A stretch of 50,103 nucleotides of DNA from an uncultured Bacilli bacterium. Lineage in GTDB: Bacteria > Bacillota_I > Bacilli_A > RF39 > UBA660. Below the pieces are notes generated by a model. That model worked only from the letters and a program-made list of their open reading frames with translations. It searched no databases and had not been told where the DNA came from. The translations under genes were made by a program, and so were the position numbers. Numbering within the stretch: the first letter of the stretch is position 1; the number at the start of each line of letters is the position of its first letter. Location: the NCBI GenBank assembly GCA_947628585.1, contig CANRAL010000004.1:1-50103 (forward strand), written 5' to 3'. Shown in pieces: positions 2,039-50,103 of the stretch.

Positions 2039-2081
2039 CGTTCATTTGTTCGTGTCAATAATAATTATAAACATTTGTTTG
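2039..2081. promoter_or_regulatory. Two LexA (Cheo/SOS) boxes
   Basis: CGTTCATTTGTTCG (2039-2052) and TAAACATTTGTTTG (2068-2081) resemble the Bacillota consensus CGAAC-N4-GTTCG; the second overlaps the lexA -35. Confidence 0.7.
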
Positions 2082-2107
2082 ACTTTTTACATATATTATT
2101 GTAAAAT
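2079..2107 (+). promoter_or_regulatory. SigA promoter of lexA
   Basis: TTGACT-17 nt-TAAAAT upstream of RBS AGGAGG. Confidence 0.7.
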
Positions 2108-2123
2108 TATTTTAGGAGGAAAC

Positions 2124-2747: not shown

Positions 2748-2751
2748 TTTT

Positions 2752-2776
2752 AAAACTCCTTTTTAGGAGTTTTTTT
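2752..2776. terminator. Bidirectional terminator
   Basis: AAAACTCCT-TTTT-AGGAGTTTT between convergent lexA and asnB. Confidence 0.75.
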
Positions 2777-4598: not shown

Positions 4599-4608
4599 AG
4601 ATCCTCCA

Positions 4609-6543: not shown

Positions 6544-6617
6544 AATACATCACTACTACATAATTATAGCATTATTTATCTTTTTTTTGCGTAAAAATGT
6601 TATAATTTTACATAGAG

Positions 6618-7115: not shown

Positions 7116-7162
7116 TTTTATTTTATATATTTGATATTCTTATTATGCTTATAAAAATTTAT

Positions 7163-7239
7163 GGCGGAGTTGGTGAAGTGGTTAACACGGTAGATTGTGG
7201 CTCTATTATGCGTGGGTTCGACTCCCACACTTCGCCCCA
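7163..7239 (+). tRNA. tRNA-His(GTG)
   Basis: G-1, acceptor GCGGAGT/ACTTCGC, anticodon GTG at 7197-7199, TTCGA T-loop, encoded CCA. Confidence 0.95.
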
Positions 7240-7269
7240 TTTATAGGTATTTTTTTTAAATTTAAAGTT

Positions 7270-7295
7270 AAGGATGCTAAGCATTCTTTTTATTT
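7270..7295 (+). terminator. Terminator after tRNA-His
   Basis: AAGGATGC-TAA-GCATTCTT followed by T tract. Confidence 0.6.
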
Positions 7296-7308
7296 GGGTT
7301 TATAAATA

Positions 7309-7337
7309 GTATATTTATATTTATTTAACCCACAATA
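7309..7337 (+). promoter_or_regulatory. Putative forespore (SigG-type) promoter of ligD
   Basis: GTATA-17 nt-CACAATA vs consensus GHATR-17/18-CATXHTA (one mismatch); AT-rich background weakens this. Confidence 0.35.
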
Positions 7338-7352
7338 ATAATGTGATTAATA

Positions 7353-8717
7353 ATGGCTAGTTTAAAAAAATATCAAACCAAGAGGAATTTTAAAAATACT
7401 AAAGAACCTAAAGGAAAAGTCGTTAAATCGTCTTATCAACTTCGTTTTTGCGTTCAACATCATTTAGCCCGTAAAGATCATTATGATTTTCGCTTAGAAT
7501 GGAATGGAACTTTAAAAAGTTGGGCTATACCTAAAGGTCCATCATATAATACTTTAGATCGTCGTTTAGCTATTATGGTTGAAGATCACCCTCTTAGTTA
7601 TCGAAATTTTGAAGGAACAATTCCAAATGGCGAATATGGAGCTGGAACAGTTATGCTTTGGGATGAGGGAACTTGGCTTCCTACTACTAAAATTAATAAT
7701 TCTTTTAATATGTCTAGTTTTAAATTTATTTTAAAAGGAAAAAGATTAAAAGGTCTATGGACTATGATTCATTTAGAGGATAATAATTGGCTTTTAATTA
7801 AAGAAAAGGATGATACTAAAGGTTTTAAAAATATAAATAGAATTAATAAAAGTATTAAAACTAATCGAACAATGACAGATATTAGTAAAGCAAGTGCTTC
7901 TATGCCTAAATTAACTAATCCTATGAAAAAAATAACTTCTAAATATACGAAAAAAGATATATTTAATTACTATGAAAAAGTATCTATAAGAATGTTACCA
8001 TTTATTCTAAATCGACTTATAAGTGTTATCCGAGCTCCCGAGGGATTAAAAGGGGAAATATTTTTTAAAAAGCATTTAGAAAATAATCATAAAGGAATTA
8101 AAAAAATAAATTTATCTTTGGAAAACAATAAATTAACTGATTATTACTATATAACTAATATTTATGGTTTACTTAGTGAAGTTCAAATGAATAGTTTTGA
8201 GTTTCATCCTTGGAGTAGTACTATAAATAATTTAGAACATCCTGACATTTTAATTTTTGACTTAGATCCCGATGAAAAATTGGAAATTAATAAATTACGA
8301 GAAGGAGTTAAAGATTTAAAAAGTATTTTAGATAGTTTAAATTTAAAATCCTACCTTAAAACCAGTGGCGGAAAAGGTTATCATGTTTTAGTTCCTCTTA
8401 AAACTAAAATGACATGGGCTAAAGCTCGACAAACAGCCAAAAATATTGCAACTTTAATGGAAGAAAAATGGCCGACAAAATATACTAGTAACATTCGAAA
8501 AGATAAACGTAAAGGGAAAATATTTATTGACTGGATTCGTAATACTCGTACTTCAACTTCTGTTGCTCCCTATTCTATTCGTTTAAGAAAAAATTTGCCA
8601 GTATCTATGCCAATTAAATGGAGTGAATTAGATAAAATTAAACCTAATGAGATAACTATGGAAAAAGCTATAAAAAGATTAAACAGAATTGACCCTTGGG
8701 AAGATTTTTTTGCTTAA
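7353..8717 (+). CDS. ligD: LigD phosphoesterase + primase-polymerase fusion lacking the ligase domain
   Basis: PE motifs QHHLAR..HYDFRLE, LKSWAIPKGPS, EDHP; POL motifs FDLDP, KTSGGKGYHV, IFIDW.RN; only 454 aa with no room for a ligase domain. Confidence 0.88.
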   Translation: MASLKKYQTKRNFKNTKEPKGKVVKSSYQLRFCVQHHLARKDHYDFRLEWNGTLKSWAIPKGPSYNTLDRRLAIMVEDHPLSYRNFEGTIPNGEYGAGTVMLWDEGTWLPTTKINNSFNMSSFKFILKGKRLKGLWTMIHLEDNNWLLIKEKDDTKGFKNINRINKSIKTNRTMTDISKASASMPKLTNPMKKITSKYTKKDIFNYYEKVSIRMLPFILNRLISVIRAPEGLKGEIFFKKHLENNHKGIKKINLSLENNKLTDYYYITNIYGLLSEVQMNSFEFHPWSSTINNLEHPDILIFDLDPDEKLEINKLREGVKDLKSILDSLNLKSYLKTSGGKGYHVLVPLKTKMTWAKARQTAKNIATLMEEKWPTKYTSNIRKDKRKGKIFIDWIRNTRTSTSVAPYSIRLRKNLPVSMPIKWSELDKIKPNEITMEKAIKRLNRIDPWEDFFA

Positions 8718-38545: not shown

Positions 38546-40570
38546 TCAACTATCTTCATCACAATTTAAACAGACAATTTTTTTATTTTTTTCTACTAAT
38601 AATTCTTTACATTTAGGACATTTCTCACCTGTAGGTTTATACCATAAAGCATAAGTACATTTTGGATAATTACTACAACCATAAAAAATTTTTCCTTTTT
38701 TACTTTTACGTTCAATAATTTTTCCCTTACATTTTGGACAATCACATATTTCTATTATATCTTTCTTTTCTTTTTTTACATACTTACATTCTGGATAATT
38801 ACTACAAGCAATAAATTCACCATATTTACTTTTCCGATAAACTAAAGTACCACCACATTCTGGACATATTTCCCCTGTTGATTCAGGAGCTTTCTTTTCC
38901 ATTTCGTGAAAAGCTTTGTCAACTAAAGGTTCAAATTCTGCATAAAAATCTTTTAATACTTTAATATTATCTTTTTTAGCTTCAGCAATATCATCTAAAT
39001 CTTGTTCCATTTGAGCTGTATATTTAACATTAACAATATTTGAAAAAAATTCTTGTAATTTATCTGTTGTTTCATATCCAATCGCGGTCGGTTCAAACTT
39101 TTTATCTACCAAAGTAACATATTCGCGATCCTTTATCGTTTGAATAATAGTAGCATAAGTACTAGGGCGACCAATACCTAAACTTTCCAATTCTTTAATA
39201 AGACTACTTTCTGTATAACGTGCTGATGGTTTAGTAAAATGTTGAGTTTTAGTAATATCATCGGCAGTTAATATATCAGATTTATAATTTTTTAAATCAG
39301 GTAATAAAACATCTTCATTATCTTCATATTCACCATAAACTTTTAAATAACCATCAAAAGTTAAGACACTTCCCGTTGCTTTAAAAGAATAATCGTTATT
39401 ATCTAATATAACAGTTGTAGCTAATGTTTTAGCATCATGCATCAAAGAAGCTAAAGCTCTTACATAAATTAATTTATATAATTTATATTCATCACTAGAT
39501 AAATAAGCTTTCATCTCTTCAGGAGTTCGATTAATACTTGTAGGTCTAATCCCTTCATGAGCATCTTGAACGTTTTCCGTTTTTTTAGCTTTCTTTACAT
39601 ATCCAATGTATTCTTCTCCATATTTGCCTTTAATATAACCAAAAGTACTTTTTACAAATTCATCAGAAAGTCTAACACTATCAGTACGCATATAAGTTAT
39701 TAAACCAACTGTTTCACTTCCAATATCGATACCTTCATATAATTTTTGCGCTATTTTCATTGTTTTAGAAGCCGCGAAATTTAATTTTGAAGAAGCTAAT
39801 TGTTGTAAAGTACTTGTTCGAAATACTTCTTTACTACTTTTATTTTTTTCTTTTTCTTCAACACTAGCAATTCGAAATGACTTACTTAAAACATCTAATA
39901 TTTTATTAGCGCTAACTTCATCAGGTATTTCGATATCTTTACCCTTATATTTTTCTAAAGTTGCTTTAAAAGTGTTAAAATCAGCTTCTATGGTCCAATA
40001 TTCTTTAGGAACAAAAGCTTTAATTTCTCTTTCTCGATCAACAATTAATTTTAAAGCAACACTTTGCACTCTCCCAGCACTTTTACCCGCGGTTTTACTT
40101 TGCATTAACCGGCTTAAACGAAAACCAATAATGCGATCTAAAATTCTTCTTGTTTCGCCACTTTTAACTAAATCCATATCTATTTTTCGAGGATTATCCA
40201 TGGATTTTAAAACAACATCTTTAGTTATTTCATTAAATACTACTCTTTTATATTTTTCATCAGGAATCTTTGCTTCATCATAAATATGCCAAGATATAGT
40301 TTCCCCTTCTCGATCTGGATCAGTTGCTAAATAAATAGTATCAGCACTATCTATCATTTTCTTTAAGTAAAGAACATCTTTTTTCTTTTCTTTAATAACA
40401 GTATATTTAGGTTTAAAATCATTTTCAATATCTACTCCTAAAGAATATTTTCCTGATTTTGATAAATCCCGAATATGACCCTTACTAGATATAACATTAT
40501 ATTTACTACCTAAATACTTCTCAATAGTTTTACATTTTGCTGGTGATTCCACAATCACTAGATTTTTCAT
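38546..40570 (-). CDS. topA: DNA topoisomerase I
   Basis: VESPAK, DPDREGE, SAGRVQS, ITYMRTDS, C4 zinc ribbons. Confidence 0.97.
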   Translation of the reverse strand: MKNLVIVESPAKCKTIEKYLGSKYNVISSKGHIRDLSKSGKYSLGVDIENDFKPKYTVIKEKKKDVLYLKKMIDSADTIYLATDPDREGETISWHIYDEAKIPDEKYKRVVFNEITKDVVLKSMDNPRKIDMDLVKSGETRRILDRIIGFRLSRLMQSKTAGKSAGRVQSVALKLIVDREREIKAFVPKEYWTIEADFNTFKATLEKYKGKDIEIPDEVSANKILDVLSKSFRIASVEEKEKNKSSKEVFRTSTLQQLASSKLNFAASKTMKIAQKLYEGIDIGSETVGLITYMRTDSVRLSDEFVKSTFGYIKGKYGEEYIGYVKKAKKTENVQDAHEGIRPTSINRTPEEMKAYLSSDEYKLYKLIYVRALASLMHDAKTLATTVILDNNDYSFKATGSVLTFDGYLKVYGEYEDNEDVLLPDLKNYKSDILTADDITKTQHFTKPSARYTESSLIKELESLGIGRPSTYATIIQTIKDREYVTLVDKKFEPTAIGYETTDKLQEFFSNIVNVKYTAQMEQDLDDIAEAKKDNIKVLKDFYAEFEPLVDKAFHEMEKKAPESTGEICPECGGTLVYRKSKYGEFIACSNYPECKYVKKEKKDIIEICDCPKCKGKIIERKSKKGKIFYGCSNYPKCTYALWYKPTGEKCPKCKELLVEKNKKIVCLNCDEDS

Positions 40571-40578
40571 TTTTCCTC

Positions 40579-42624
40579 CTATTCGGCATCTGCCAATATT
40601 TGTTCTTTTTCTTCTTCTATTTTATTTTGAGCATTTATTAAGGCTTCATCTAAATATTTAAAATAATTATTTTGAATTATTAAACTACTCATTTGAGTTT
40701 TTAAATTTATTTTACTGTTAATATCTTTTATTTCATCCATCGTATATTCTTTATCGGTATAATATTTTATGTTTCCATTAGAGGCATTATAATATGCTAA
40801 TTCATTTTTCCAAGAACCATCCGCATAAATAACTCGTGATTCATATTCATCGCTTAAAATATCACTACCCATATAATACCTTGGATCATAATTTAAATTA
40901 AATAAATTTGCAATAGTAGGAGTTAGATTAATAAATGAGGTATATTGTTTAAATTCTTTAGCCTCCATTTCACTATTATAAATGATGAATGGCGTTCTTT
41001 CAACCTCATAATCACTTAAATCATAATCTAGTACATAATTTAAGGTATCATTTTTAAGACCATAAGGGTAATGATCCCCAAATAAAGCAATAACTGTATC
41101 TTCTAAAATGCCGGCTTCTTCTAATTTTTCTAAAAGAACACCTAAAGCATTATCCAAAGTTTTAAGCTTAGACATATATCTTTTTAAATCTGTAGGATAA
41201 TCCTTGTCGGAAAAAAGATAAGTGTATTTATCTCCTTCAATTGAAGGAACGGAATAAGGTTGATGACTTGAAACACTAGTTAACCATAACATAAATGGTT
41301 TATCAGTATTTTCTAAAGTAATATCCATCGCTACATTTAAAAAGTCTTCATCACTAGCCCAATTTCGATATTCATTAGAATATTCTATTCCTAAATCTTC
41401 AACACCATAATATTTTTGACTACCTAAGTTTTTATGAATAGTTCTCCGATAGTAATAAGCTTCCGTATAATCATGCATACTCATTGTGCGATAATCCGCG
41501 GCATTAAATAAATTAAAAATGGAACTGCTATAAGTATTATTTTTATATTTATTAGCCGTACAATTATTATAAATAGAGTATAAACCAGTCATAGCACTAA
41601 ATTCATTATTCCCAGTTGAACACGAATTACGCGGAGAATAATTATTTTTAAAAGCCCATCCTTCCGTATACATTTTATAAAAATTAGGATAATATTCTTC
41701 ATTAATAAATATTTCATTAACACTTTCCATCATAATAACAATTAAGTTTTTACCTTCAAACATTCCCGTATAATCATTATAATTAGAAATATTTTGATTA
41801 ATCAAATAATTACTAATATTTTGTAGTGTCTTATTAGTCTCATCATCGATAACTCTTTCCCATAAAGTATCATCAATAATTCTATCAGTTACTTTATCAT
41901 TTTCTTCAATTACAAAATCAATAGTTTCATCAACATCGATTAAAGCACTTTTAATATCTAATATTCCATAGGCTAAAATACCAAATTCATTGACAACAAT
42001 ACTCGGAACATTAGGATTTTTAAATAAATCTAAATTAGAAACTGTTTGTAATTCATTTTGCATAAATTTGACTTTTAAAGTACTATAATACCCAAGAGAT
42101 AAAGTAATCAAACATATAAAAGTTGCAAGTATTCTAATAGGATACTCATATTTACTTCTCTTTTTTAATAAAAAAATTTTTTCTTCTTTAATTTTAGGAC
42201 TTTTTATCTTTAATATTAGATAAGTTAATAATAACCCAATAAAAGGAATAAATATTAAATAATATCTTGGTAAAAAAGATGCTAAAAATTCTCTTACATA
42301 ATCAATTACTGCTCCCAATTGACTAGAAGTATTAAAGGACATATAAACACCAATAAAATTATTAAATCCCATTTGTAAAAAAGCATAAATTGTAAATAAA
42401 AAACAAAATACAATTAAACCAATTTTTTGAATAGTCTTATTAAACCAAGATAAAAGAAAACTAATTACCAAGGAAATAATACTATAACCTAAAATAACTC
42501 TAATAAGCGAATAATCGAATATTTCAATATTACTAGCATATCGAAATATAAATTCAATCATTAATGTAAATATAAATATAATTAAAAAATTTTTAAGTAC
42601 TTTACTATTATTTAATTTTTTCAT
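40579..42624 (-). CDS. LTA synthase/sulfatase family protein (second paralogue)
   Basis: About 5 TM, NLIVIMMES, STGNNEF, FGDHYPY. Confidence 0.85.
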   Translation of the reverse strand: MKKLNNSKVLKNFLIIFIFTLMIEFIFRYASNIEIFDYSLIRVILGYSIISLVISFLLSWFNKTIQKIGLIVFCFLFTIYAFLQMGFNNFIGVYMSFNTSSQLGAVIDYVREFLASFLPRYYLIFIPFIGLLLTYLILKIKSPKIKEEKIFLLKKRSKYEYPIRILATFICLITLSLGYYSTLKVKFMQNELQTVSNLDLFKNPNVPSIVVNEFGILAYGILDIKSALIDVDETIDFVIEENDKVTDRIIDDTLWERVIDDETNKTLQNISNYLINQNISNYNDYTGMFEGKNLIVIMMESVNEIFINEEYYPNFYKMYTEGWAFKNNYSPRNSCSTGNNEFSAMTGLYSIYNNCTANKYKNNTYSSSIFNLFNAADYRTMSMHDYTEAYYYRRTIHKNLGSQKYYGVEDLGIEYSNEYRNWASDEDFLNVAMDITLENTDKPFMLWLTSVSSHQPYSVPSIEGDKYTYLFSDKDYPTDLKRYMSKLKTLDNALGVLLEKLEEAGILEDTVIALFGDHYPYGLKNDTLNYVLDYDLSDYEVERTPFIIYNSEMEAKEFKQYTSFINLTPTIANLFNLNYDPRYYMGSDILSDEYESRVIYADGSWKNELAYYNASNGNIKYYTDKEYTMDEIKDINSKINLKTQMSSLIIQNNYFKYLDEALINAQNKIEEEKEQILADAE

Positions 42625-42627
42625 TTT

Positions 42628-43437
42628 TTAATCTCCCCATAATTTACGAATTTTATTATTTTCATATTCATTAGCTATGTCAGAATATAAATCTTCGGCA
42701 TCTAATAATAAATCATTTATTTTTTGAGACAAAATCACTTTTTTCTCATACTGTCTCGTTTTATTTAATAATTGTAAAGCTTTTTTTAATTTTTTTATTG
42801 CTTCAATTAATTCATTTAATTCTTCAGCATTAACAATATCTTGATTAACTATTTTAATTAGTTCTTGAAGTTCCATATCTAAATAAAAACTTTCGACCAT
42901 TCCTTCGGCTTCATTACGAACCGCAACTATTTCTTGATCTAATTCCTTATCTAAATTATTTCTTTTATTAATTCGTTCTTCTATTTTACCAACTTTTTTC
43001 GAAAAAGAATTTTTAATTAATAATAAGTTTCCTTTTTCATTAAGTAAATTTTCTTTTGATTCATTTTTTATTAAAGTAACTACTTTTAAGCGAAAATTTT
43101 TAGAAAATGCCATTAAACTAGATACGGCTAAAGAAGATAAAACTAGGCTATTTATAAAAAAGGCCATTAAAGACGTTGGGAACAAAGCAATATTACCAAT
43201 TATAATAAAGGAAAGACTACCATAAAAAAAGATAGTGCCTTTAATTGGAAAATCATTTAATGCTTGTAATTTATCATCGATTTTAAGAATTTTATCGTCA
43301 ATTTCTCCCATATTTTCTAAACATTCTTTTTCTAATTTATCTAAGGTTAAGTTGCCACTGGCTTCATTATTATCAATATTTTTAATTTTATTTTCATAAT
43401 CTCTTATTTCTGTCTTAATTTTATTTTGTTTTGACAT
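42628..43437 (-). CDS. Hypothetical coiled-coil protein with 2 TM
   Basis: ORF coupled to rnhB; no recognised motif. Confidence 0.65.
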   Translation of the reverse strand: MSKQNKIKTEIRDYENKIKNIDNNEASGNLTLDKLEKECLENMGEIDDKILKIDDKLQALNDFPIKGTIFFYGSLSFIIIGNIALFPTSLMAFFINSLVLSSLAVSSLMAFSKNFRLKVVTLIKNESKENLLNEKGNLLLIKNSFSKKVGKIEERINKRNNLDKELDQEIVAVRNEAEGMVESFYLDMELQELIKIVNQDIVNAEELNELIEAIKKLKKALQLLNKTRQYEKKVILSQKINDLLLDAEDLYSDIANEYENNKIRKLWGD

Positions 43438-44047
43438 TTTTATTCCTACTTTCTAATTCTTTTACAGGTTTATAACTAAATCTATAATTATCTAATATAC
43501 CATATTTTTGCATATTTTCAAGGTGTTTTTTTGTAGGATACCCTTTATGTTTGGCAAATTCATACATTGGATATTTTTGATCAAGCTCATACATTATACT
43601 ATCACGAGTAACTTTAGCTATAACACTAGCAGCCGCAATAGATAAGCTTAAAGCATCACCATGGATAATATCAATAACATTTTCTCTAGTTGGTAATTTC
43701 ATCGCATCAGTTAAAATATATTCGGGCTTTACTTTTAAATTATCCAAGGCAATATTCATAGCTAAACGAGAAGCTTCTAAAATGTTTATTTCATCAATCG
43801 TCTTAGCATCAACTATCCCTACTCCATAACTTATAGCTTCTTTTTTAATAATTTCAAAAAATTTATTTCTTTGTTTTTCACTTAATTTTTTTGAATCGTT
43901 TAGACCTTTTAAAGAATAATTAACTGGCAATATCACAGCTGCCGCGACTACAGGTCCTACTAAAGGTCCTCGCCCTGCTTCATCTACCCCAGCAATTAAA
44001 GTAATACCTTTTTTATATAATTTTTCTTCATATTCTAGCATATTCAT
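43421..44047 (-). CDS. rnhB: Ribonuclease HII
   Basis: GVDEAGRGPL, DSKKL, IAAASVIAKVTRD, KHKGY. Confidence 0.96.
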   Translation of the reverse strand: MNMLEYEEKLYKKGITLIAGVDEAGRGPLVGPVVAAAVILPVNYSLKGLNDSKKLSEKQRNKFFEIIKKEAISYGVGIVDAKTIDEINILEASRLAMNIALDNLKVKPEYILTDAMKLPTRENVIDIIHGDALSLSIAAASVIAKVTRDSIMYELDQKYPMYEFAKHKGYPTKKHLENMQKYGILDNYRFSYKPVKELESRNKNVKTK

Positions 44048-44915
44048 CTTGATCTAATGTTACTCCTTTAATTTTTCCACTCACTAAATCATTATAAATC
44101 TTTAAAGCTACTTTTTCCATATCAACTTCATTATTTTTCTTATATCCCATTTTTTCCCCAAGAAAAATTAAAACATCTGCTGTTTCTAAGCTTTTAGCAA
44201 CTTGATAATTAGTTTCTAAAATATGAGGATAATATTTTCGGTAAAAATCAATTAAATAATACGCAATATCTAATATATCTAGAACTTCACTTTTTATGGC
44301 TGCCGTAGCTGCTAAATTTAAAGCTACCCTTTCATCATCTAATTTTGGCCAAAGAATACCTGGAGTATCCATGAGTAATAAATTATTGGCCGTTTTTAAC
44401 CAATTTACATCTTTAGTAATACCTGGTTTATTTCCTACATTTGCCACTTTTTTACCCACCAATTTATTTATAAGAGTACTTTTACCAACATTAGGTATAC
44501 CAATTACAAGAGCCTTTATTTCCTTTTTCTTTAAACCTTTTTCTAATCTACTTTTTTGAATATCCATTGTTAATTTATTAGTCATATTAATTAATGCTTT
44601 ATAATCATTATTATTGGTTAAATCCATAACTAAAACGGGAATGCCTTTATTTTCATAATATTTAACCCATTTATTTGTAATATAAATATCACATAAATCT
44701 TTTTTAGTCATAATTAAAATTCGAGGCTTATTTTTAATTATTTCTTCAATATCTTTATTCTTTGAAGAATAAGGAATTCGCGCATCGATTATTTCATATA
44801 TTATATCAATTAAATTAATATTTTCTATTATTTGTCTTTTGGTTTTAGCCATATGACCAGGATACCAATTGATTACACTTTTATGCAACCACTGTTCTTC
44901 ACTATTATTACTCAT
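44028..44915 (-). CDS. rbgA: Ribosome biogenesis GTPase RbgA/YlqF
   Basis: INWYPGHMAK, DARIP, GIPNVGKSTLIN, DTPGILWP. Confidence 0.97.
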   Translation of the reverse strand: MSNNSEEQWLHKSVINWYPGHMAKTKRQIIENINLIDIIYEIIDARIPYSSKNKDIEEIIKNKPRILIMTKKDLCDIYITNKWVKYYENKGIPVLVMDLTNNNDYKALINMTNKLTMDIQKSRLEKGLKKKEIKALVIGIPNVGKSTLINKLVGKKVANVGNKPGITKDVNWLKTANNLLLMDTPGILWPKLDDERVALNLAATAAIKSEVLDILDIAYYLIDFYRKYYPHILETNYQVAKSLETADVLIFLGEKMGYKKNNEVDMEKVALKIYNDLVSGKIKGVTLDQDEYARI

Positions 44916-44916
44916 T

Positions 44917-45777
44917 TTAATCACTCACTTTTTCTTCTATTTTCTTTGTTTCATCTATATATTTATAATTTAAACTGTTGCTTTTAGATATAGCGGATTT
45001 TTTAGTTTCTTTTTCATATAAGTCCTTTGCTCCTTTGGCAACTCCTCCACCACGCTTTGCTACATTTAGATTTTCTTTTAATCCTTTTGGATGTTCTTCT
45101 CTTGCAATATCCCTTGTTGCTATTTCACCAATATTTGTTAGAGCAACTTCAATATCAGTCATATTATCTCTCAACGATTCTTTTCTGAGACCTTTTAATT
45201 TTTTATATTCAGACGCAGTCATATTTGACCAACCTTTATATATTTCGTTAGTTAAAAGAGCATATTCTAATGGTTTAGTAATTCCCCCTTCTTTCCATAC
45301 ATCGGTAAGTTTAAATCGATCTACAATTCCATTTAACCTTGCCTTTATCCATTCATCATTATATCCTTTTTTTCGATAATATTCTACTGCTCTATTAACT
45401 GCAACTTCAGGATCAAACACCTCATCAATTCTTTCACTTCCTAAATTTGCCAACCACATTTTAAAAGGCTCTGCCTTTGGACTAGGAATTGACTCAATTA
45501 ATCTGAATACATTTTTTGTTTCTAACATATCTGTATTTCGCATTTTACCATCTTTTGATTTTAATTTGAAAGTGTCACAATTTGTGACGGTTTCATTTCC
45601 CTCTTGAACCATTCTAGATTTTAAAGTTCTCCAATAATGAGATGGATCTTTACTTTCGGTTAATGCACCTATAACATCAACAACACTAAAGTAATATTCT
45701 TCTTTTTCACTATCCCAAATACTTCTTATTTCTTTACCATCAAAAAGATTTGAAATTGTTTCTAATTTGTTATTCAA
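44917..45777 (-). CDS. BRO-N domain DNA-binding protein
   Basis: F.GKEIRSIWD...YFSVVDVI.AL, RLIESIPSPKAEPFK.WLA, LRDNMT; TTG start. Confidence 0.9.
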   Translation of the reverse strand: MNNKLETISNLFDGKEIRSIWDSEKEEYYFSVVDVIGALTESKDPSHYWRTLKSRMVQEGNETVTNCDTFKLKSKDGKMRNTDMLETKNVFRLIESIPSPKAEPFKMWLANLGSERIDEVFDPEVAVNRAVEYYRKKGYNDEWIKARLNGIVDRFKLTDVWKEGGITKPLEYALLTNEIYKGWSNMTASEYKKLKGLRKESLRDNMTDIEVALTNIGEIATRDIAREEHPKGLKENLNVAKRGGGVAKGAKDLYEKETKKSAISKSNSLNYKYIDETKKIEEKVSD

Positions 45778-45928
45778 AATGGTCACCTACTTTCTTATTT
45801 TTATTAAGGGTTACAATTCCGTAATCACCTCTCTAATTCTTAACATAATTTATACTAAATTTATTATATTTTTAATAATTTTCACCAAATTTTAATGAAA
45901 ATGTGTAAGATTAAATGTAATGAAAAGT

Positions 45929-46017
45929 CTTTATTTATAAGGGTTTATAACGGGGTTGCAATAAATCGTAATCAACCAATTGATTACACTTTTATTAAGA
46001 ACATTATTATTATTCAT
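45929..46017 (-). repeat. att-like junction A: displaced rbgA start (MNNNNVLNKSVINW) + 48-bp end motif
   Basis: 21 bp identical to the rbgA 5' region; motif 33/48 identical, ungapped, to 47102-47149. Confidence 0.75.
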
Positions 46018-47044
46018 TTTTATCACCACAACTTTTACTTTCTTCTACTAATAAATCAAAATCTGATTTATATAATTTATCTTGTTTAACTCTATATTTT
46101 TCAAATTCTGTTAATGCTTTATCACAAGCAATTTCATGTGATATTTTTCCAGCATCTTTTAAAATATCTCTATCATCTGCAAGTAAGAATTTATCTATTC
46201 TTGTCGCCCAATCTTCCATTGTCATTGGAATATGTCTTCTTGCTCTATTTTCTGCAATTTCTAAAAATGCACTAACAATTACTTCTAAATCTTTAATTTC
46301 TTCTTCAGATAAATAATTTTTAGCAATAATAACATCTGATTCCATTATTTTGCCATTGGGAGAATTTTTCCATGATGTTAAACCCATATGTTCTTTATTC
46401 GCATTTACTCTATCATATATTATTTCAGCTGCTGTTTGATGAGAAACTGCATAATGCATTTTGTTTTGAACCTTTTTAAAAAAGTCAATAGAAATAGGAG
46501 ATTTAGGGTCATAATCAATGCTTGTTGCATATATATCCGTTACTTTTTGATAAAATCTTCTTTCAGATAATCTTATTTCTCTTATTTCTTCAAGTAACTT
46601 TTCAAAATAATCTTTATCAATAAATGAGCCGTTTTTCATTCTTTCTTTATCTAATACATAACCTTGAATCGTAAAAGTCTTTAAGATATTAGTGGCCCAT
46701 CTTCTAAATTGAGTTGCTCTAATTGAATTAACTCGATATCCAACAGAAATAATTGCATCTAAATTATAGAATTCAATACTTCTTTTAACTTTTCTATTTC
46801 CTTCTAATTGAACTAATTCCATTTTGGAATAAGTTGAAGGTTTATCAAGTTCACCATCCGAATATATATTAATTAAATGTTTTGCAATTGCTGGTTGTTC
46901 TACATCAAATAATTCAGCCATTGCTTTTTGAGTCATCCAAAGAGTTTCACTTTCATATCTTACTTGAATACCTTTATCTTTTTCTTGTACTTTAAAAGTA
47001 ATAAACTCTTCAGCACTACTTCTTATCATTAAATCTTTTGCCAT
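46010..47044 (-). CDS. RhuM family DNA-binding protein
   Basis: LWMTQKAMAELF, YNLDAIISVGYRVNS.RATQFR.WA, IREIRLSERRFYQK, VQNKMH. Confidence 0.92.
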   Translation of the reverse strand: MAKDLMIRSSAEEFITFKVQEKDKGIQVRYESETLWMTQKAMAELFDVEQPAIAKHLINIYSDGELDKPSTYSKMELVQLEGNRKVKRSIEFYNLDAIISVGYRVNSIRATQFRRWATNILKTFTIQGYVLDKERMKNGSFIDKDYFEKLLEEIREIRLSERRFYQKVTDIYATSIDYDPKSPISIDFFKKVQNKMHYAVSHQTAAEIIYDRVNANKEHMGLTSWKNSPNGKIMESDVIIAKNYLSEEEIKDLEVIVSAFLEIAENRARRHIPMTMEDWATRIDKFLLADDRDILKDAGKISHEIACDKALTEFEKYRVKQDKLYKSDFDLLVEESKSCGDKNE

Positions 47045-47101
47045 TTCTTCATCTCCTTTGCATATTTATCCGAAAATGTAAAAACTTTTTTCAATAGTTT
47101 C

Positions 47102-47178
47102 CTTTATTTATAATGTCTTGTTAAGGTGTTTCCATAAATCCATATCGCACAGTTTATATTTGTTTTATTTTCATTCAT
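47102..47178 (-). repeat. att-like junction B: displaced rbgA-like start (MNENKTNIN-TG) + 48-bp end motif
   Basis: Same RBS/start module and same ungapped motif ending TTATAAATAAAG as junction A. Confidence 0.7.
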
Positions 47179-48022
47179 TTTTATCACTTACTTTTTCATT
47201 TAATAATTTAATTTTTTCTGCATTATTAAGTATATCTAATTGATATTTACATATATCACTTAATATTTCAAATCTTTCTTCTTTTGATTTTCCTTCTTTA
47301 ATTAACTCAGCATTATGTGATTCTAAATTAGATAAAACAGTTAATTCATTTATGGAAGCATAATCTCTTACATTTGAACTTTTTGCTAACTCTGGATTTA
47401 ATTCTCTCCATTTTTTAGCAGTAGTATGAAATAATATTACATTAAGAATATCTGCTTCTTCAGCATATTTTAACCATTCTTTATTTTTATAAAAATCATT
47501 ATCAGGTAAGATGTAATTTTTAATTGCATCTGTATGAATTAAATAATTATTCTTTGTAAGTATTCTTTTTACATCCCATTCTCTATTTTGATTTTCTAAC
47601 TCTTTTAATCTTTCAAATTCTTTTATTAAATATAATTTAAATACAGGACTTATGGCAGATGCAAATTCAAATGCAATATCTTTATGTGCATATGTTCCAC
47701 CATATTTACCACGTTTTGAATATATGCCAATAGCATTTGTTTTTTCACACCATTCAGTAACACTTAAAGTAAATGTATGAAGTCCAGCACTTTTTCTAAA
47801 CCCGTCGAATTCGACGGAATTAAAATTTGGATTATAAATAGATTCCCATGTTCCTAAAAACTCTAGAGTAATTCTATTCCTTAACCAATTTCTAATCACA
47901 TCATCAGCTTTTGATTTTCCTTCTTTAAATTTACCAAAATCAGAAATGCAAATATAATCATTATCATCTATATTTGTAACATTTATTTTAATATTTTGAA
48001 CTTTTATTATTTTGTTAGACAT
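47171..48022 (-). CDS. KilA-N domain DNA-binding protein
   Basis: DYICISD, I.NWLRNR.TLEFLG.WE, GKYGGTYAHKDIAFEF. Confidence 0.9.
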   Translation of the reverse strand: MSNKIIKVQNIKINVTNIDDNDYICISDFGKFKEGKSKADDVIRNWLRNRITLEFLGTWESIYNPNFNSVEFDGFRKSAGLHTFTLSVTEWCEKTNAIGIYSKRGKYGGTYAHKDIAFEFASAISPVFKLYLIKEFERLKELENQNREWDVKRILTKNNYLIHTDAIKNYILPDNDFYKNKEWLKYAEEADILNVILFHTTAKKWRELNPELAKSSNVRDYASINELTVLSNLESHNAELIKEGKSKEERFEILSDICKYQLDILNNAEKIKLLNEKVSDKNE

Positions 48023-48026
48023 ATAT

Positions 48027-48140
48027 TCACCTTCTTTCACTAGAGCGTATATTTCTAATTCTTTCTAAAAGTCTTTCAAAATAACCTTCACAAAAAATAT
48101 AATTTGGATTTTTTAATCTTTCATCATCAATTACAAATCC
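48027..48140 (-). pseudogene. Internal fragment of a third RhuM gene
   Basis: GFVIDDERLKNPNYIFCEGYFERLLERIRNIRSSERR* aligns to RhuM GYVLDKER...IREIRLSERR. Confidence 0.8.
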
Positions 48141-48641
48141 AGTAATTTCTCCTTCTTTTCATACATCGGTAAGCTTAAATCGATCTACAATACCATTTAA
48201 CCTTGCCTTTATCCATTCATCATTATATCCTTTTTTACGATAATATTCCACTGCTCTATTAACTGCAATTTCAGGATCAAACACCTCATCAATTCTTTCA
48301 CTTCCTAAATTTGCAAGCCAAAGTTTAAATGGTTCTGCTTTATTTGATGGAACTGATTCAATTAATCTTAAAATTCCCTTAGTATCTAATACATCGGTGT
48401 TATAGAATTTTCCATCTTTAGCTTTTAATTTCAGTTGACTACAAAATGTAGTCAACTCAGATCCTTCTTTTTTCAATCTTAGCTTTAATACAGACCAATA
48501 TTTTCTAGTATCACTACTATCAGTTAATGCATTTATAACATCAATAACACTAAAGTAATATTCTTCTTTTTCACTATCCCAAATACTTCTTATTTCTTTA
48601 CCATCAAAAAGATTTGAAATTGTTTCTAATTTATTATTCAA
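48141..48641 (-). pseudogene. Truncated BRO-N paralogue
   Basis: Near-identical to 44917-45777 except the central segment; TGG->TGA at 48159, then KEGEIT fused in frame to the RhuM fragment. Confidence 0.85.
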
Positions 48642-48749
48642 AATTCCACCTACTTTCTTTTTTTATTAAAGATTACAATTTCGTAATCACCTTTCAAATT
48701 TCTATATCATTTTTACTAAATTTATTATTTTTTTAATAATTTTCACCAT

Positions 48750-48787
48750 TTTTCTAAATTCATCGAATTCGATGGAATTAAATTTCA
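48750..48787 (-). pseudogene. Short KilA-N remnant
   Basis: Similar to 47791-47827; reads (F)NSIEFDEFRK vs FNSVEFDGFRK. Confidence 0.65.
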
Positions 48788-49194
48788 TAAATAATAGAAC
48801 CATTCTTAGCATCTTTATGGTTTAGTAAAACTTTAACTTCAAGAGAACTAGGTACAATATCAAAAGCATTTCTTTGATTCATGTAGGTAATTGTTTCTGA
48901 AATATTTTCAAAATGAAAATAAAAGCATAAAGAATCATTCGTTACTCTTTTTACATAAGAATTAGTTGGCCAAATTAATGCTGGCTCATTATTCTCTGAT
49001 ATTATATATTCATTAAAATCAATTTCTACTTTTTTACCAGTTTCTATATTATCGATTTCATTCCAATTATAATATATAAAAACTCGGAAACAATATATAC
49101 CAGATTTATCAATAATTCTTAAATCATCTTCATCTAATTCAATTTTACTTATGCCAATATTGATACCATTTAGAATCATCATATTATTTTCCAT
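48778..49194 (-). CDS. Hypothetical protein (cassette cargo)
   Basis: ORF overlapping the RhuM stop; no recognised motif. Confidence 0.65.
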   Translation of the reverse strand: MENNMMILNGINIGISKIELDEDDLRIIDKSGIYCFRVFIYYNWNEIDNIETGKKVEIDFNEYIISENNEPALIWPTNSYVKRVTNDSLCFYFHFENISETITYMNQRNAFDIVPSSLEVKVLLNHKDAKNGSIIYEI

Positions 49195-50103
49195 TTGAAT
49201 CGCTGCTTTCTTTAAAGTATTTATTGTAAAATTCATCCATCGAAGATATATATTTTTGATCTTGAATTACCCTATATTTTTCATATTCGCTTTCCGCTTT
49301 ATCGACTGCTTCTTTATGAGTTATTTTACCAGAATGAGTCAAAATATTTTTTTCTCTAAATTTTAATAATTTATCCGTTGCATTTATCCAATCGTTCATA
49401 GTCATAACTGTGTGTTCATATGCCATATCTTCTGCATAATCTAAAAAGGCTAAAGTTAGACGATTTAACTTATTTAATTCTTCTTCAGTTAAATAGTTTT
49501 TAGCAATAGAAACATCGTATTTATATATTAATCCATCTGGACTATTTTTCCAATTAGTAAGTCCCATATTTTCTTTATTAGCATTAGCTCTTGTATAAAT
49601 TAATTCTGCTGCAGTATAACCACTTATCGCGTAATGCAATTTGTTTTGCACAATTTTAAAAAATGTGTATGCTTCTTCAGCTTTTGGATTATAATCGGAT
49701 GATGTCGCAATGAATAAATCAGTAATCTTTTGATAAGACATTCTTTCGCTTACTCTAATAGTTTTAATTCTTTCTAATAATTCATTAAAATATTGTGTGC
49801 TAAATGTATTTCCACTTATAAATCTCTCATCATTTAAAGCAAAACCTTTTATCATATATTCTTTTAGTATTTTAGTTGCCCATATTCTAAATTCAGTTGC
49901 TTTTTTAGAATTAACTCGATAACCAACCGCAATTATAGCATCAAGATTATATATTTTTGTTTTATAATTTTTACCGTCTGAAGCAGTTACCGAGGAATCC
50001 TCGACAACTGCATTTTCATCAAGTTCGTTATCTTTAAATATATTTTTTAAATGCAATGATATATTATCAGTAGAACAATCAAAAACTTTAGACATTCCTT
50101 TTT
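49184..50103 (-). CDS. RhuM family protein (5' end outside the window)
   Basis: YNLDAIIAVGYRVNSKKATEFRIWAT, IRVSER, VQNKLH; frame open to the window edge. Confidence 0.9.
   Translation of the reverse strand, partial: KGMSKVFDCSTDNISLHLKNIFKDNELDENAVVEDSSVTASDGKNYKTKIYNLDAIIAVGYRVNSKKATEFRIWATKILKEYMIKGFALNDERFISGNTFSTQYFNELLERIKTIRVSERMSYQKITDLFIATSSDYNPKAEEAYTFFKIVQNKLHYAISGYTAAELIYTRANANKENMGLTNWKNSPDGLIYKYDVSIAKNYLTEEELNKLNRLTLAFLDYAEDMAYEHTVMTMNDWINATDKLLKFREKNILTHSGKITHKEAVDKAESEYEKYRVIQDQKYISSMDEFYNKYFKESSDSNGK

Follow-up and report, generated by a model that had tools for sequence, protein, structure and literature searches.

The start of rbgA, which encodes the essential ribosome-assembly factor ribosome biogenesis GTPase A, was found to be the insertion target of a stack of small gene cassettes that meet the gene at one dinucleotide. 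We consider it likely (probability about 0.68) that small mobile cassettes have accreted here in tandem through site-specific recombination at a single crossover, with a large serine recombinase (LSR) as the most likely enzyme. Our best reading is of an LSR-driven array resembling the staphylococcal cassette chromosome (SCC) in miniature, which works like an integron and is not one. Defence-type cassettes lacking a recombinase are stacked in the start of an essential gene, each renewing that start, and the layout recurs in many gut Bacilli. The window (the whole 50,103-nucleotide stretch analyzed) was one whole contig, C4. The target gene and the units nearest to it comprised the following features.

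44028..44915, minus strand: rbgA, 295 aa from the ATG at 44915; Pfam MMR_HSR1 2.6e-21
44866..44867, minus strand: J0 at the live rbgA start: crossover dinucleotide TG, bases 1-2 of the Trp codon
44868..44925, minus strand: BRO unit right arm (P), with RBS GTGAT, ATG 44915 and codons MSNNSEEQWLHKSVIN
44917..45786, minus strand: BRO-N gene, cargo of unit 1, 289 aa; Pfam Bro-N 7.6e-11; PADLOC PDC-S13 2.8e-112
45929..45976, minus strand: BRO unit left arm (P'), GTTGATTAC-GATTTA-N21-TTATAAATAAAG
45977..46017, minus strand: J1, displaced rbgA start and RhuM unit right arm, ATG 46017, MNNNNVLNKSVIN-W, TG 45978-45977; repeat family D10
45977-47149, minus strand: RhuM unit (unit 2), 1173 bp
46010..47044, minus strand: RhuM-family gene (RhuM-1), cargo of unit 2, 344 aa; Pfam RhuM 7.6e-110; PADLOC PDC-S05 3e-151
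47102..47149, minus strand: RhuM unit left arm (P'), TGCGATATG-GATTTA-N21-TTATAAATAAAG
47150..47178, minus strand: J2, older displaced rbgA start and KilA-N right arm, ATG 47178, MNENKTNIN, TG 47151-47150

The BRO-N, RhuM and KilA-N genes each ended in the same RBS/ATG module. The 50-kb window contained three copies of AGTGATWAAAATGARTRA with at most one mismatch, all of them at these gene ends, against a shuffle expectation of 0.01, and none of 100 shuffles reached three. The RbgA-like N-termini opened by these modules broke at the Trp-codon TG (44866-67, 45977-78 and 47150-51), giving TG-to-TG units of 1111 bp (BRO-N) and 1173 bp (RhuM). The initial annotation had described this arrangement, and its minus-strand coordinates, unit sizes and common start module all held. 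So did the shared motif that it placed after the break: GATTTA-N21-TTATAAATAAAG was present twice in the window versus 0.00 expected, with a third, truncated copy on the continuation contig C37. Clean matches lay in only three places in the whole 1.24-Mb genome (the two exact copies and the C37 copy with one mismatch), and the remaining 7 of 10 loose matches look like chance. The BRO-N stop codon lay 2 nt ahead of the rbgA ATG, and the right arm of the BRO unit formed the present rbgA 5' end, mirroring the unit's own left arm at 20 of 28 positions. At that left arm an inverted repeat (45963-45975 / 45980-45992) flanked a TTGG centre, and a near-identical copy of the arm formed the left end of a ParA-led element in another genome (G022:C55).

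The breakpoint was conserved well beyond this genome. rbgA was matched in 41 of 41 related genomes, and a TG-GTATCCaGGnCAtATGGC consensus was kept across 44 distinct rbgA starts; from the Trp codon on (WYPGHM...), the rbgA body makes up the constant right half (B') of the site. Homology of rbgA between genomes opened at J0, with alignments starting at 9154 and the TG at 9159-60 in the numbering of the joined contigs C37+C4. Within the genus, RbgA N-termini ahead of INWYPGHM varied in length and sequence, and pseudo-starts of the source genome matched live rbgA starts in other genomes. The live start MNNENKTNINW of G011 is of the N-terminus type of J2, a type also common at junctions elsewhere, and a LHKSVINW start also stood ahead of rbgA beside an LSR pair in G022. 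The comparison of regions upstream of rbgA that had been proposed as a check came out in favour of serial insertion at one fixed point, as the contents of the rplS-lepB...rbgA interval differed in every one of the 10 genomes for which upstream DNA was available and the breakpoint stayed constant; the contig stopped within 700 nt upstream of rbgA in 11 of the 22 same-genus genomes in which the gene was found. The same junction was present in at least 133 distinct copies in other gut Bacilli assemblies, a count inflated, like all those given here, by kinship among the MAGs. Across the 133 distinct junctions the rbgA reading frame broke at one dinucleotide, positions outside the search pattern were conserved as well, and every copy with an anchor gene in view had the lepB...rbgA setting. 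Among 80 loci from other species, rbgA lay downstream in 23, lepB/rplS upstream in 20, cassette-family genes were present in 25, LSR/ParA only in 4 and none of these in 8, and no anchor gene was on the opposite strand. All 16 first junctions had the order RBS, ATG, short ORF, TG and arm.

We propose that crossover would take place within ...INW|YPGHM at the rbgA 5' end, at the Trp-codon TG. Each unit consists of a left arm (TG-nTTGATnnC-GATTTA-N21-TTATAAATAAAG and further conserved sequence to about +72), a cargo of one or a few genes in the same orientation, and a right arm that is a recombination half-site and also gives rbgA a working RBS, an ATG and 5-28 N-terminal codons. The proposal that each insertion restores the essential gene agrees with the finding that every unit supplies an RBS, an ATG and N-terminal codons, so that rbgA stays intact. 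A new insertion would displace the previous start upstream, leaving it as a pseudo-start before the left arm of the new unit. Units would therefore be younger the closer they lie to rbgA, which would be co-transcribed with its newest neighbour. Expression of rbgA would probably depend on cassette promoters; a promoter scan of the arm motif itself returned no promoter. With their central TG and inverted half-sites, the unit arms look like halves of LSR att sites. They were inverted about the TG at 11.6 of 26 positions (7.5 +/- 0.27 in shuffled arms), with no overall gain in symmetry for a unit's own pair (11.59, versus 10.91 for non-cognate and 11.24 +/- 0.39 for random pairs). Symmetry reached 14-18 of 28 in LSR-bearing units and up to 22 of 28 in some LSR-less ones; about half of all LSR-less units scored near random.

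As the initial annotation had stated, no unit in the window encodes a recombinase: a profile search (PF07508, PF00239, PF00589) found none on C4 or C37. Its suggestion to look beyond 50103 for one was not borne out, the array on C37 being without a recombinase too. In this genome, PF07508 and PF00239 matched only on C2 (twice), C32, C53 and C26, and PF00589 only on C3, C5 and C30. In other genomes, LSR elements sat exactly at the rbgA-start crossover. In G067, a 7.6-kb element encoding a 418-aa LSR (Resolvase, Recombinase and Zn-ribbon domains) and PD-Lambda-4_A was inserted precisely where a YhcG cassette would meet rbgA; G022 had an LSR pair 60 nt from rbgA, G003 a broken LSR within a 4.5-kb unit, and L106 a 2.6-kb unit of an LSR gene followed by a KilA-N gene. 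The source genome's five LSRs were 25-37% identical to the rbgA-adjacent LSRs of G022 and G003 and 33-36% to that of G067; since other LSRs of the genus were about equally close, no cognate enzyme can be named in the source genome. The enzyme would most likely be an LSR supplied by larger elements using the same site, namely the 2.6-kb LSR+KilA-N unit, 4-8-kb LSR elements, ParA/ParB conjugative-type elements and a prophage-like contig. LSR-less cassettes would be moved in trans, presumably through circular intermediates. Alternatively, they might be carried along in cis upon excision of an LSR element from a junction lying farther away, as has been shown for tandem SCC-like cassettes. Phage LSRs of the canonical kind are reported not to target attR (PMC3783163; 10.1101/2025.05.02.651858), so serial insertion would need either a relaxed, Ccr-like selection of sites or the use of right arms as attB halves.

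The alternative that survives best, which we nevertheless regard as unlikely, is a fossil array, in which the units are internal-deletion remnants of autonomous LSR elements, prophages or integrative and conjugative elements (ICEs) once integrated at rbgA; the units would no longer move, and the array would be nothing more than a record of those earlier integrations. It draws on the older part of the array. The last 77 bases of the window were identical to C37:1-77, so the block leaving the window continues there, as had been suspected of a decayed block running off its end.

47171..48040, minus strand: KilA-N gene, 289 aa; Pfam KilA-N 1e-19; PADLOC PDC-S22 3.5e-115
48041..48158, minus strand: RhuM fragment, 39 aa; Pfam RhuM 8e-9, profile positions 57-89
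48159..48753, minus strand: second BRO-N copy and upstream region; Pfam truncated Bro-N at 48159-48641
48778..49236, minus strand: 152-aa ORF overlapping the end of RhuM-2; no Pfam family and no PADLOC match
49184..50103, then C37:1-180, minus strand: RhuM-2 gene, 340 aa in all; Pfam RhuM at 49184-50095
C37, upstream of RhuM-2: truncated left-arm motif at 239-277; DinD/BRO-N gene at 276-1157 (DinD by NCBIfam equivalog, 324 bits, cut-off 242)
C37, beyond the DinD/BRO-N gene: 370-bp spacer, then PepSY-like, lepB and rplS

The RhuM-2 reading frame and its homologues crossed the join, and the whole array spanned about 6.6 kb from lepB/PepSY to rbgA. The block at 47171-50103 was scrambled through illegitimate joins: a clean unit boundary was gone on the left side of the KilA-N gene, the RhuM fragment was fused behind the truncated BRO gene, which was 82-93% identical to 45277-45892 (repeat families D1, D2, D9, D12) and ended at a TGA where the intact copy has TGG, a KilA-N scrap lay at 48749-48785 behind the 152-aa ORF (repeat family D13), and junction J3 was without its pseudo-start. 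Decay rises with distance from rbgA, which fits the earlier proposal that the newest unit lies next to the gene. The fossil view also gains from the window's KilA-N gene, 86% identical to that of the L106 unit but with a RhuM fragment in the LSR's place, from the lack of a cognate LSR or an attP-like site elsewhere in the MAG, and from poorly matching arms in many units. Random decay, however, would leave broken genes and ragged ends, yet the 59 of 64 distinct complete units that had no LSR retained both arms, of 118 motif sites that could be assessed, 95 had an intact in-frame pseudo-start and most of the remaining 23 resemble decayed versions, and 13 of 44 units contained a single ORF of at least 80 aa, about ten of them 1.0-1.3 kb long. 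Cassettes also recurred at 89-95% identity beside rbgA genes only 66-77% identical: a YhcG cassette in G067 and G021 (94.6%; rbgA 77%; break at the TG), RhuM-2 in single-gene units beside rbgA in L173 and L164 (92-93% at the nucleotide level; rbgA 66-67.5%) and RhuM-1 in L099 (89% at the nucleotide level; rbgA 68%). Right-arm type tracked the family of the upstream gene (mutual information 0.556 versus 0.253 +/- 0.052; 0 of 1000 shuffles) and not that of the downstream gene (176 of 1000 shuffles). Moreover, a contig from metagenome run X1 joined 45979 to 47153, so that exactly the 1173-bp unit was absent, with two shared bases and a 20-nt short side that draws a tool warning. This joint comes from Logan contigs, for which 15 of 66 joints were listed; no circle junction was among the 15, and none of 53 metagenome contigs had terminal overlaps.

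We think it very improbable that the locus is a hypervariable island shaped by homologous recombination only, with units exchanged through short homologies or the lepB/rbgA flanks and with the module and arm motif as shared expression signals. Start modules are indeed swapped: in run X10 a 44865-to-47150 joint belonged to a BRO gene with a different, J2-type module, so arms can be exchanged by some other recombination, and the window's RhuM-1 arm followed KilA-N in L095. Homology blocks also often stopped within genes and not at the TG; one example is the block against G004 at 6967-7988 in the C37+C4 numbering. Exchange of this kind is opposed by the frame break at one dinucleotide in 133 distinct junctions, LSR-bearing elements bounded by exactly these points, arms that are inverted half-sites around the TG, and a motif found nowhere outside the array in the source genome.

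Still less probable is an assembly artefact in which single cassettes of co-existing strains were falsely chained at shared att repeats. The sample does hold variants (the contig skipping the 1173-bp unit, other start modules), cassette genes in run X1 were at 3-10 times the rbgA/rnhB depth, and the contig broke inside RhuM-2. The longest identity between junctions was nonetheless about 21 nt, far below the 77-nt overlap at the contig ends, so each junction needs real spanning k-mers, and independent assemblies contained arrays with at least two motifs as well, at 20 of the 80 genome loci and at 6 of the 53 loci from metagenomes. A true integron with IntI and attI/attC cassettes, suggested by an array of small units that mostly carry one gene, share one orientation and lack a recombinase of their own, and by cargo (defence candidates, GNAT, NUDIX) like that of chromosomal integrons, can be dismissed, since there was no tyrosine recombinase on C4, C37 or the array contigs of five relatives, no conserved attC-type hairpin when J1 (45977; z -3.6) and J2 (47150; z +1.05) were folded, and the recombinases inside arrays are LSRs. 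Of the initial interpretation, then, serial insertion, recombinase-less units and restoration of rbgA stand, whereas an integron-like mechanism does not (there was no IntI and no attI), and the phrase "without attC sites" misleads, every unit having its own conserved pair of recombination arms.

The closest known system to the accretion array appears, by analogy, to be staphylococcal SCC with its tandem SCC-like cassettes. SCC inserts at the 3' end of rlmH/orfX, whereas the rbgA site is a 5' end at which RBS, start codon and N-terminus are replaced. The rbgA units are also far smaller (0.3-4.7 kb, many single-gene, against 17-48 kb), the LSRs at the site are not Ccr orthologues (best NCBIfam CcrB score 113 bits, cut-off 900), the hosts are uncultured small-genome gut Bacilli, and the source genome's array is entirely without a recombinase. 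The nearest analogues, as far as the accessible text describes them, are SCC/SCCmec, tandem SCC-like cassettes (PMC11470126) and the Enterococcus cassette chromosome (PMC6222049): LSRs insert at one point of a conserved housekeeping gene and restore it, tandem cassettes have repeated att sequences between them, and recombinase-less neighbours with anti-phage cargo are excised singly or jointly by one element's recombinase, CcrAB mobilizing tandem defence cassettes without ccr (Hossain et al. 2024, PMC11470126). Tn5253/Tn5252-type ICEs of streptococci and enterococci enter the same gene at the same end, so the statement in the initial annotation that the rbgA 5' end is a streptococcal ICE target is correct for Tn5253; these ICEs are large and conjugative, use tyrosine integrases and have attB duplications of 17-84 bp, the duplicated att restoring rbgA coding and the N-terminus or upstream region being altered in some hosts (PMC8571831; PMC4701971). 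The rbgA-array sites differ in being LSR-like with a 2-bp crossover, and most units are tiny, recombinase-less and stacked in arrays. Integrons have a fixed insertion point, the newest unit proximal, an ordered stock of small co-oriented cassettes, a separately encoded recombinase and diverse small cargo including defence genes, and in outline the array works the same way. These integron features are backed by the accessible part of 10.64898/2026.03.17.712381. The rbgA array, however, is without IntI, an attI next to a resident integrase, Pc or single-stranded attC hairpins; its arms are double-stranded LSR-type half-sites, and insertion falls inside an essential gene, so each cassette must supply the gene start. 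Cis-mobilizable elements (CIMEs) are att-flanked and without recombination and transfer genes; they share the site of an autonomous element (ICESt1/ICESt3-type), stand in tandem with it and can leave with it through recombination of the outer att sites; the array is similar in its att-flanked units without such genes. Known CIME cases involve tyrosine integrases, 3' gene ends and one or a few decayed islands, and are not widespread arrays of single-gene units. The terms CIME and accretion-mobilization occur in the accessible text of PMC5704250 and PMC6323972.

The cargo matched PADLOC single-gene defence candidates PDC-S13, S05, S22 and S02 at 1e-95 to 1e-151. Judging from these sequence matches, the BRO-N, RhuM, KilA-N and DinD genes belong to candidate single-gene anti-phage families and would probably function in defence. 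Across arrays, the orientation of rbgA was shared by 85 of the 90 ORFs that were 120 aa or longer.

The array lay on the minus strand of the window, where three cargo genes preceded the live rbgA gene:

ATG at 44915, minus strand: start of rbgA, encoding MSNNSEEQWLHKSVINW-YPGHM, 2 nt past the BRO-N stop
44917-45786, minus strand: BRO-N gene (family by Pfam), the cargo directly upstream of rbgA
46010-47044, minus strand: RhuM gene (RhuM-1; family by Pfam), upstream of BRO-N
47171-48040, minus strand: KilA-N gene (family by Pfam), upstream of RhuM

All three cargo genes closed on the module AGTGAT(A/T)AAAATGA, which had three matches in the window against 0.01 expected (at least three in 0 of 100 shuffles). 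In the two upstream module copies the ATG opened MNNNNVLNKSVIN and MNENKTNIN, displaced rbgA starts referred to here as pseudo-starts. Their resemblance to rbgA ended at the TG of the Trp codon (45978-77, junction J1; 47151-50, junction J2), past which both ran into GATTTA-N21-TTATAAATAAAG, with two matches in the window against 0.00 expected. TG-to-TG spacing, counted from the live start (junction J0, 44866-44867), was 1111 and 1173 bp, and J0 and J1 had only ~21 nt in common. The initial annotation, which had read these features from the sequence, was correct in every coordinate. Its statement that no unit encodes a recombinase also held: Pfam found no recombinase domain in the window, and neither the five large serine recombinase (LSR) genes of the source genome (two on contig C2, one each on C32, C53 and C26) nor its three tyrosine recombinases (PF00589; C3, C5 and C30) lay on the window contig, C4, or on C37, the contig that continues it. 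The source genome comprised 1.24 Mb in 59 contigs at 25.5% GC, with the window accounting for all of C4. The last 77 bases of C4 were those of C37:1-77, and the frame of a second RhuM gene (RhuM-2, 340 aa) crossed the join. Past RhuM-2, C37 carried in order a third motif copy, a DinD/BRO-N gene, a 370-bp spacer, a PepSY-like gene, lepB and rplS, so that the array occupied the ~6.6 kb separating lepB/PepSY from rbgA-rnhB. The search beyond position 50103 for a recombinase and the outermost rbgA start thus recovered more of the array, with no recombinase there and with the pseudo-start of the third motif copy lost. The rbgA-distal part was scrambled: the second BRO copy stopped at TGA where the first has TGG and was fused to a 39-aa RhuM fragment, and a KilA-N gene scrap sat behind a 152-aa ORF without a family. 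This decay gradient fits the earlier proposal that the newest unit lies next to rbgA.

The same junction recurred widely. The first 16 junctions, from 11 genomes, all read RBS-ATG-short ORF-...AAy-TG-nTTGATnnC-GATTTA-N21-TTATAAATAAAG. Allowing up to one mismatch, the pattern matched 21 of the 56 genomes of the genus, 14 of which were of array type by eye, and a backwards control pattern matched eight genomes in the same scan. A stricter pattern applied to one genome per species gave at least 120 stretches, of which 80 were taken as loci; their record titles were nearly all uncultured Bacilli or 'Tenericutes' gut MAGs (rabbit, mouse, chicken, sheep, human). Among these loci rbgA lay downstream in 23 and lepB/rplS upstream in 20, while 25 held cassette-family genes only, four LSR/ParA only and eight none of the reference families; no opposite-strand anchor gene was found in the 80. 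A metagenome collection added 53 further stretches with the same maps, some titled human gut metagenome. An in-frame RBS-ATG-5 to 28 codons-TG was kept at 95 of 118 assessable motif sites, the other 23 being mostly decayed-looking copies, and the consensus of 133 distinct junctions had positions conserved beyond the search pattern, out to +72.

All 41 related genomes possessed rbgA. In half of the same-genus genomes in which it was found (11/22: G001, G002, G007, G008 and G012-G018) the contig ended at most 700 nt upstream of it, and many arm motifs (the conserved motif after TG) sat ~150 nt or less from a contig end, as expected if assemblies meet alternative neighbours there. The locus is the cause of a systematic MAG assembly break upstream of rbgA, and such breaks may aid in finding such arrays. 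The ten genomes with upstream DNA each had different content in the lepB-rbgA interval, RhuM, DinD-like and BRO genes reappearing in varied orders among unrelated genes, and the junctions collected shared the TG breakpoint; this is the variable content at a fixed breakpoint that had been anticipated. The RbgA N-terminus before INWYPGHM varied from 5 to ~30 residues, and the pseudo-starts of the source genome matched live starts elsewhere (MNENKTNIN resembled that of G011, LHKSVINW that of G022). Three genomes, G003, G004 and G005 (loci L033, L041 and L036), had a long N-terminal extension, MDMYQKR..., of ~30 residues before INW, and the arm in G003 had diverged (GTATAAACCGACTTTGATTAAC...TTTATTTTATAAG), which points to a second att subtype missed by the motif search. 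No same-species contigs for strain comparison were present among the 133 fetched loci, in which the best flank identity was 80%.

Sequence identity changed abruptly at the junction. A YhcG cassette was 94.6% identical between genomes G067 and G021 over 1386 nt, compared to 77.1% for the rbgA bodies, with the switch in identity falling at TG. RhuM-2 was 92-93% identical over 1096 nt to rbgA-adjacent single-gene units in two loci (L173, L164) with rbgA at 66-67.5%, and RhuM-1 was 89% identical to its counterpart in L099, with rbgA at 68%. Displaced-start type tracked the family of the gene upstream (the observed mutual information was reached in 0/1000 shuffles, in an association carried largely by one arm type following miscellaneous genes), as expected if the crossover lies between start and arm; no association was found with the downstream family (176/1000 shuffles). 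Logan contigs from four runs of four studies, the best-matching of them from rabbit gut, were mapped to the window. One contig of run X1 joined 45979 to 47153, skipping 1173 bp with two bases shared, at a depth of 25 similar to that of rbgA/rnhB; it corresponds to an array that lacks the RhuM unit, with a joint whose short side measured just 20 nt and was flagged weak. A joint from 44865 to 47150 in runs X9 and X10 was considered as an empty site and rejected, since the X10 contig returned to 44954, making it a BRO gene with a J2-type start module, which indicates that arms can be reassorted. Summed contig depth in X1 was 88-303 over the cassettes (44826-48803) and 24-32 over rnhB/rbgA (43500-44383); the excess was several-fold in four gut metagenome runs and 3-10x in X1, so that sequences at least 90% like the cassettes are present well beyond this host, in far more genomes or copies, which fits many carriers. 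Among 15 of 66 joints listed, none went back 1111 or 1173 bp as a circle joint would, contigs being uninformative on rare circles, and terminal overlap indicating circular forms was seen in 0 of 53 metagenome contigs. Both the structure of the array and its origin by site-specific insertion have good support.

An att site of an LSR has a non-palindromic central dinucleotide and imperfect inverted half-sites, ~40-50 bp in all. The junctions resemble such a site in part. TG was central in 133 of them. The arms (right arm, the RBS, ATG and N-terminal codons before TG; left arm, the motif after it) were inverted around TG, with a symmetry of 11.6/26 compared to ~7.5/26 for shuffled arms. J1 had a 13-nt inverted repeat around TTGG, and the joined right and left arms of the BRO unit matched at 20/28 positions; the joined arms of five LSR-bearing units matched at 14-18/28 and those of some LSR-less units at up to 22/28. 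Arm symmetry differed between LSR-bearing and LSR-less units (Mann-Whitney p 0.019, for few units of related sequence), about half of the latter being near random. That a unit's own arms mirror each other better than they do other arms was rejected overall (11.59, against 10.91 for neighbouring and 11.24 for random pairs), better mirroring being restricted to LSR-bearing units and a subset of cassettes. Together with the near-random half of the LSR-less units, this suggests that some right arms may be attB-type rather than attP-type halves. A pattern search of every other contig of the source MAG gave no attP-like site, one of its patterns being so strict that it missed even J1. A search for RNA features returned 0 Rfam matches (E up to 1) and likewise no tRNA.

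Larger elements bounded by TG carried LSRs with Resolvase, Recombinase and Zn-ribbon domains, and LSR genes were found inside TG-bounded units of two genomes (G067, G003) and four further loci (L106, L157, L217, L222). In G067, a 7.6-kb element comprising a CoiA-like gene, an LSR (418 aa) and a 1250-aa homologue of PD-Lambda-4_A (1.7e-195) lay exactly between the YhcG/DUF1016 cassette and rbgA. One 4.5-kb unit in G003 combined RhuM with an OLD-like ATPase and a broken LSR, and a 2.6-kb unit of L106 was made up of a KilA-N gene and an LSR (412 aa). Contig C90 of G022 carried two paired LSRs (572 and 528 aa) that ended 60 nt before rbgA, and on its contig C55 the arm motif opened an element with ParA, ParB, a SpaA-type adhesin, a sortase, a 2457-aa SNF2 protein and a DUF3991-Toprim protein; we infer that the two contigs are continuous. 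Locus L141 united arm, ParA and LSR on a single contig, the LSR being 100% identical over 531 aa to the rbgA-adjacent LSR of G022 (L039), and this protein identity suggests a very recent transfer of the element. Co-location of LSR genes with the site leads us to infer an LSR as the probable catalyst at TG. LSRs of the source genome were 25-37% identical to the rbgA-adjacent LSRs of G022 and G003 and 33-36% identical to that of G067. Naming its cognate enzyme in this way was abandoned, because LSRs at 33-40% identity abound in the genus and such values cannot single one out. The L141 record was titled an uncultured Acholeplasmatales MAG, in which the LSR followed the arm motif, ParA and four small genes.

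All intact cargo genes of the array fell in PADLOC candidate single-gene defence families: BRO-N in PDC-S13 (2.8e-112), RhuM in PDC-S05 (3e-151), KilA-N in PDC-S22 (3.5e-115) and the DinD-like gene in PDC-S13 (2e-95), the last also matching the NCBIfam DinD equivalog (324 bits, cut-off 242). We take PDC names in PADLOC to denote untested candidates, and by this family match the cargo genes are candidates for a role in defence. The 80 loci contained 44 complete units of 0.3-4.7 kb, large units being under-sampled because loci were at most 8 kb; of the 44, 13 were single-ORF units (counting ORFs of 80 aa or more) and 42 were without an LSR. Array ORFs of at least 120 aa were co-oriented with rbgA in 85 cases and opposed in five. 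The last genes of units were highly diverse, 47 proteins forming five small clusters and 31 singletons. Ten sampled proteins all had a Pfam match (E ≤0.001), among them GNAT, ASCH, histidine phosphatase, SWIM, dCMP deaminase, NUDIX, OLD-like ATPase-Toprim and methyltransferase families, with kinase-like and DUF4909 matches that fell under Pfam's own score cut-offs.

A possible explanation, to which we give roughly one chance in three, is that the array belongs to a gene-capture platform of small-genome gut Bacilli, a serine-recombinase counterpart of the integron in which LSRs on visiting elements shuffle cassettes at the rbgA start. The cassettes of such a platform, 1-5 kb in size, would come in hundreds of kinds (with defence candidates, GNAT, NUDIX, deaminase, methyltransferase and other genes), each with a two-part att site whose right half would double as the RBS, start codon and N-terminus of essential RbgA. 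Internal junctions (right arm-TG-left arm) would resemble attP and the live start (right arm-TG-rbgA) attB, so that a recombinase alone could insert or excise units, singly or in runs, without a directionality factor. Being tied to a gene that the cell needs would keep the units co-oriented and expressed. Apart from this broader platform, the course of insertion that we consider most likely is that the joined arms of an LSR-bearing element recombine with the live rbgA start at TG; the newcomer's right arm would then supply the RBS, ATG and N-terminus of rbgA, and the old start would persist upstream as a pseudo-start running into the left arm of the newcomer. Repeated insertion would build an array with the newest unit adjoining rbgA, which fits the decay gradient, and LSR-less cassettes might be targets of an enzyme supplied in trans or be excised along with an LSR element via a more distant junction. 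Phage integrases of the canonical kind are reported not to recombine attR with attP (PMC3783163; 10.1101/2025.05.02.651858), so the system would need relaxed site choice or attB-like right arms. Cargo stops abutted or overlapped the rbgA start and no terminator was predicted on the gene strand inside the array, so transcription of rbgA probably begins inside the neighbouring unit, which would account for the strict co-orientation. A -10 box at TTATAAAT in the arm was dismissed, as the promoter scan listed none there; promoter-like sites in the scan were fewer than in shuffles (28 vs 44). The conserved TcTTgCA (+66 to +72) might be a -35 box.

Of known systems, SCC and SCC-like composite islands and CIME-type accretion came closest in mechanism, and the target parallels that of Tn5253-type ICEs in rbgA. 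Like SCC-like islands, which hold tandem cassettes between repeated att/ISS, some of them recombinase-less, the arrays were tandem and 59 of 64 distinct complete units over all sets were without an LSR. SCC carries ccr genes (CcrA/B/C) in the island, whereas this array was without any LSR; those in the arrays of relatives possessed LSR domains and were rejected as Ccr orthologues because they scored 81-113 bits on CcrB/CcrC equivalog models against a cut-off of 900. SCC inserts at the 3' end of rlmH (orfX), in contrast to the 5' end of rbgA here. A CIME has att-like flanks and no recombinase or transfer genes of its own, as was true of the BRO unit with its one cargo gene only. The arms of this unit had homologues in G022, the left at the start of the ParA-led element (C55) and the right at the rbgA start by the LSR pair (C90). 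The initial label 'integron-like' held for the way of life only. Integrons have an IntI-type tyrosine recombinase beside the array, whereas PF00589 was absent from C4, C37 and the array contigs of five relatives (G022, G067, G003, G021 and G023). They also have an attC hairpin at each cassette end, whereas here, in a fold test without an attC model, J1 folded (z -3.57) because of its 13-nt inverted repeat and J2 did not on either strand (z +1.05, +0.86). Tn5253-family ICEs have a tyrosine integrase, a conjugation module and a long duplicated attB, in contrast to the lack of a tyrosine recombinase on the array contigs named above and to the mere ~21 nt common to J0 and J1; that they target rbgA with tyrosine integrases is stated in two papers (PMC4701971; PMC8571831). 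The many single-gene units, an att arm doubling as an essential-gene start, non-Ccr LSRs and the host group set the array apart from SCC, CIMEs, Tn5253 and integrons.

In open-access literature text we found no description of such an array; rbgA with a serine recombinase returned streptococcal elements only, rbgA as a defence or integration hotspot only the Tn5253 paper among the matches listed, and a ribosome biogenesis GTPase as a serine-integrase attB no paper among the matches listed. Should the cassettes indeed move in this way, bacteria would have a second means of storing tiny exchangeable genes in order, independent of the first in mechanism, with serine recombinases serving where integrons use a tyrosine recombinase. 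The hosts form a large uncultured gut group (rabbit, mouse, chicken, sheep and human metagenomes) whose mobile elements and phage defence are little known. Pseudo-start, TG and arm motif provide a simple sequence handle for harvesting cassettes from metagenomes, among them a natural set of candidate single-gene defences in a mobile context (RhuM, BRO-N, KilA-N, DinD, YhcG), as well as a family of LSR/att pairs with attB in highly conserved coding sequence.

Elsewhere in the source genome (G000:C2:20111-30604; locus L002 covers 27000-43000), a 9.7-kb insert split an ABC-transporter ATPase gene into an N-terminal 140 aa at 20111-20533 and a C-terminal 121 aa at 30239-30604. At the end of the insert, an LSR gene (27480-29096, 538 aa) immediately preceded a paralogue of BRO-N (288 aa, with 75.6% nt identity to the BRO gene of the window), so the design of an LSR with one defence-type gene at an element end recurs at another target in this genome. 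At ~37.7 kb on the same contig (L002:10728-11030), a small ORF with collagen-like GPTGPTGPQGP repeats adjoined a lysine/glutamate-rich 456-aa protein and a second LSR (531 aa). A scan of IMG/VR returned two matches, of which one (L216) was a chance match and the other (L215) a phage-tail contig. Over positions 121-7415, L215 carried phage tail-type genes (assigned by eye only) and a 300-aa gene, followed by a pseudo-start of the …NRQNTTINW type, TG and the arm motif; a prophage-like element seems also to use the same rbgA site.
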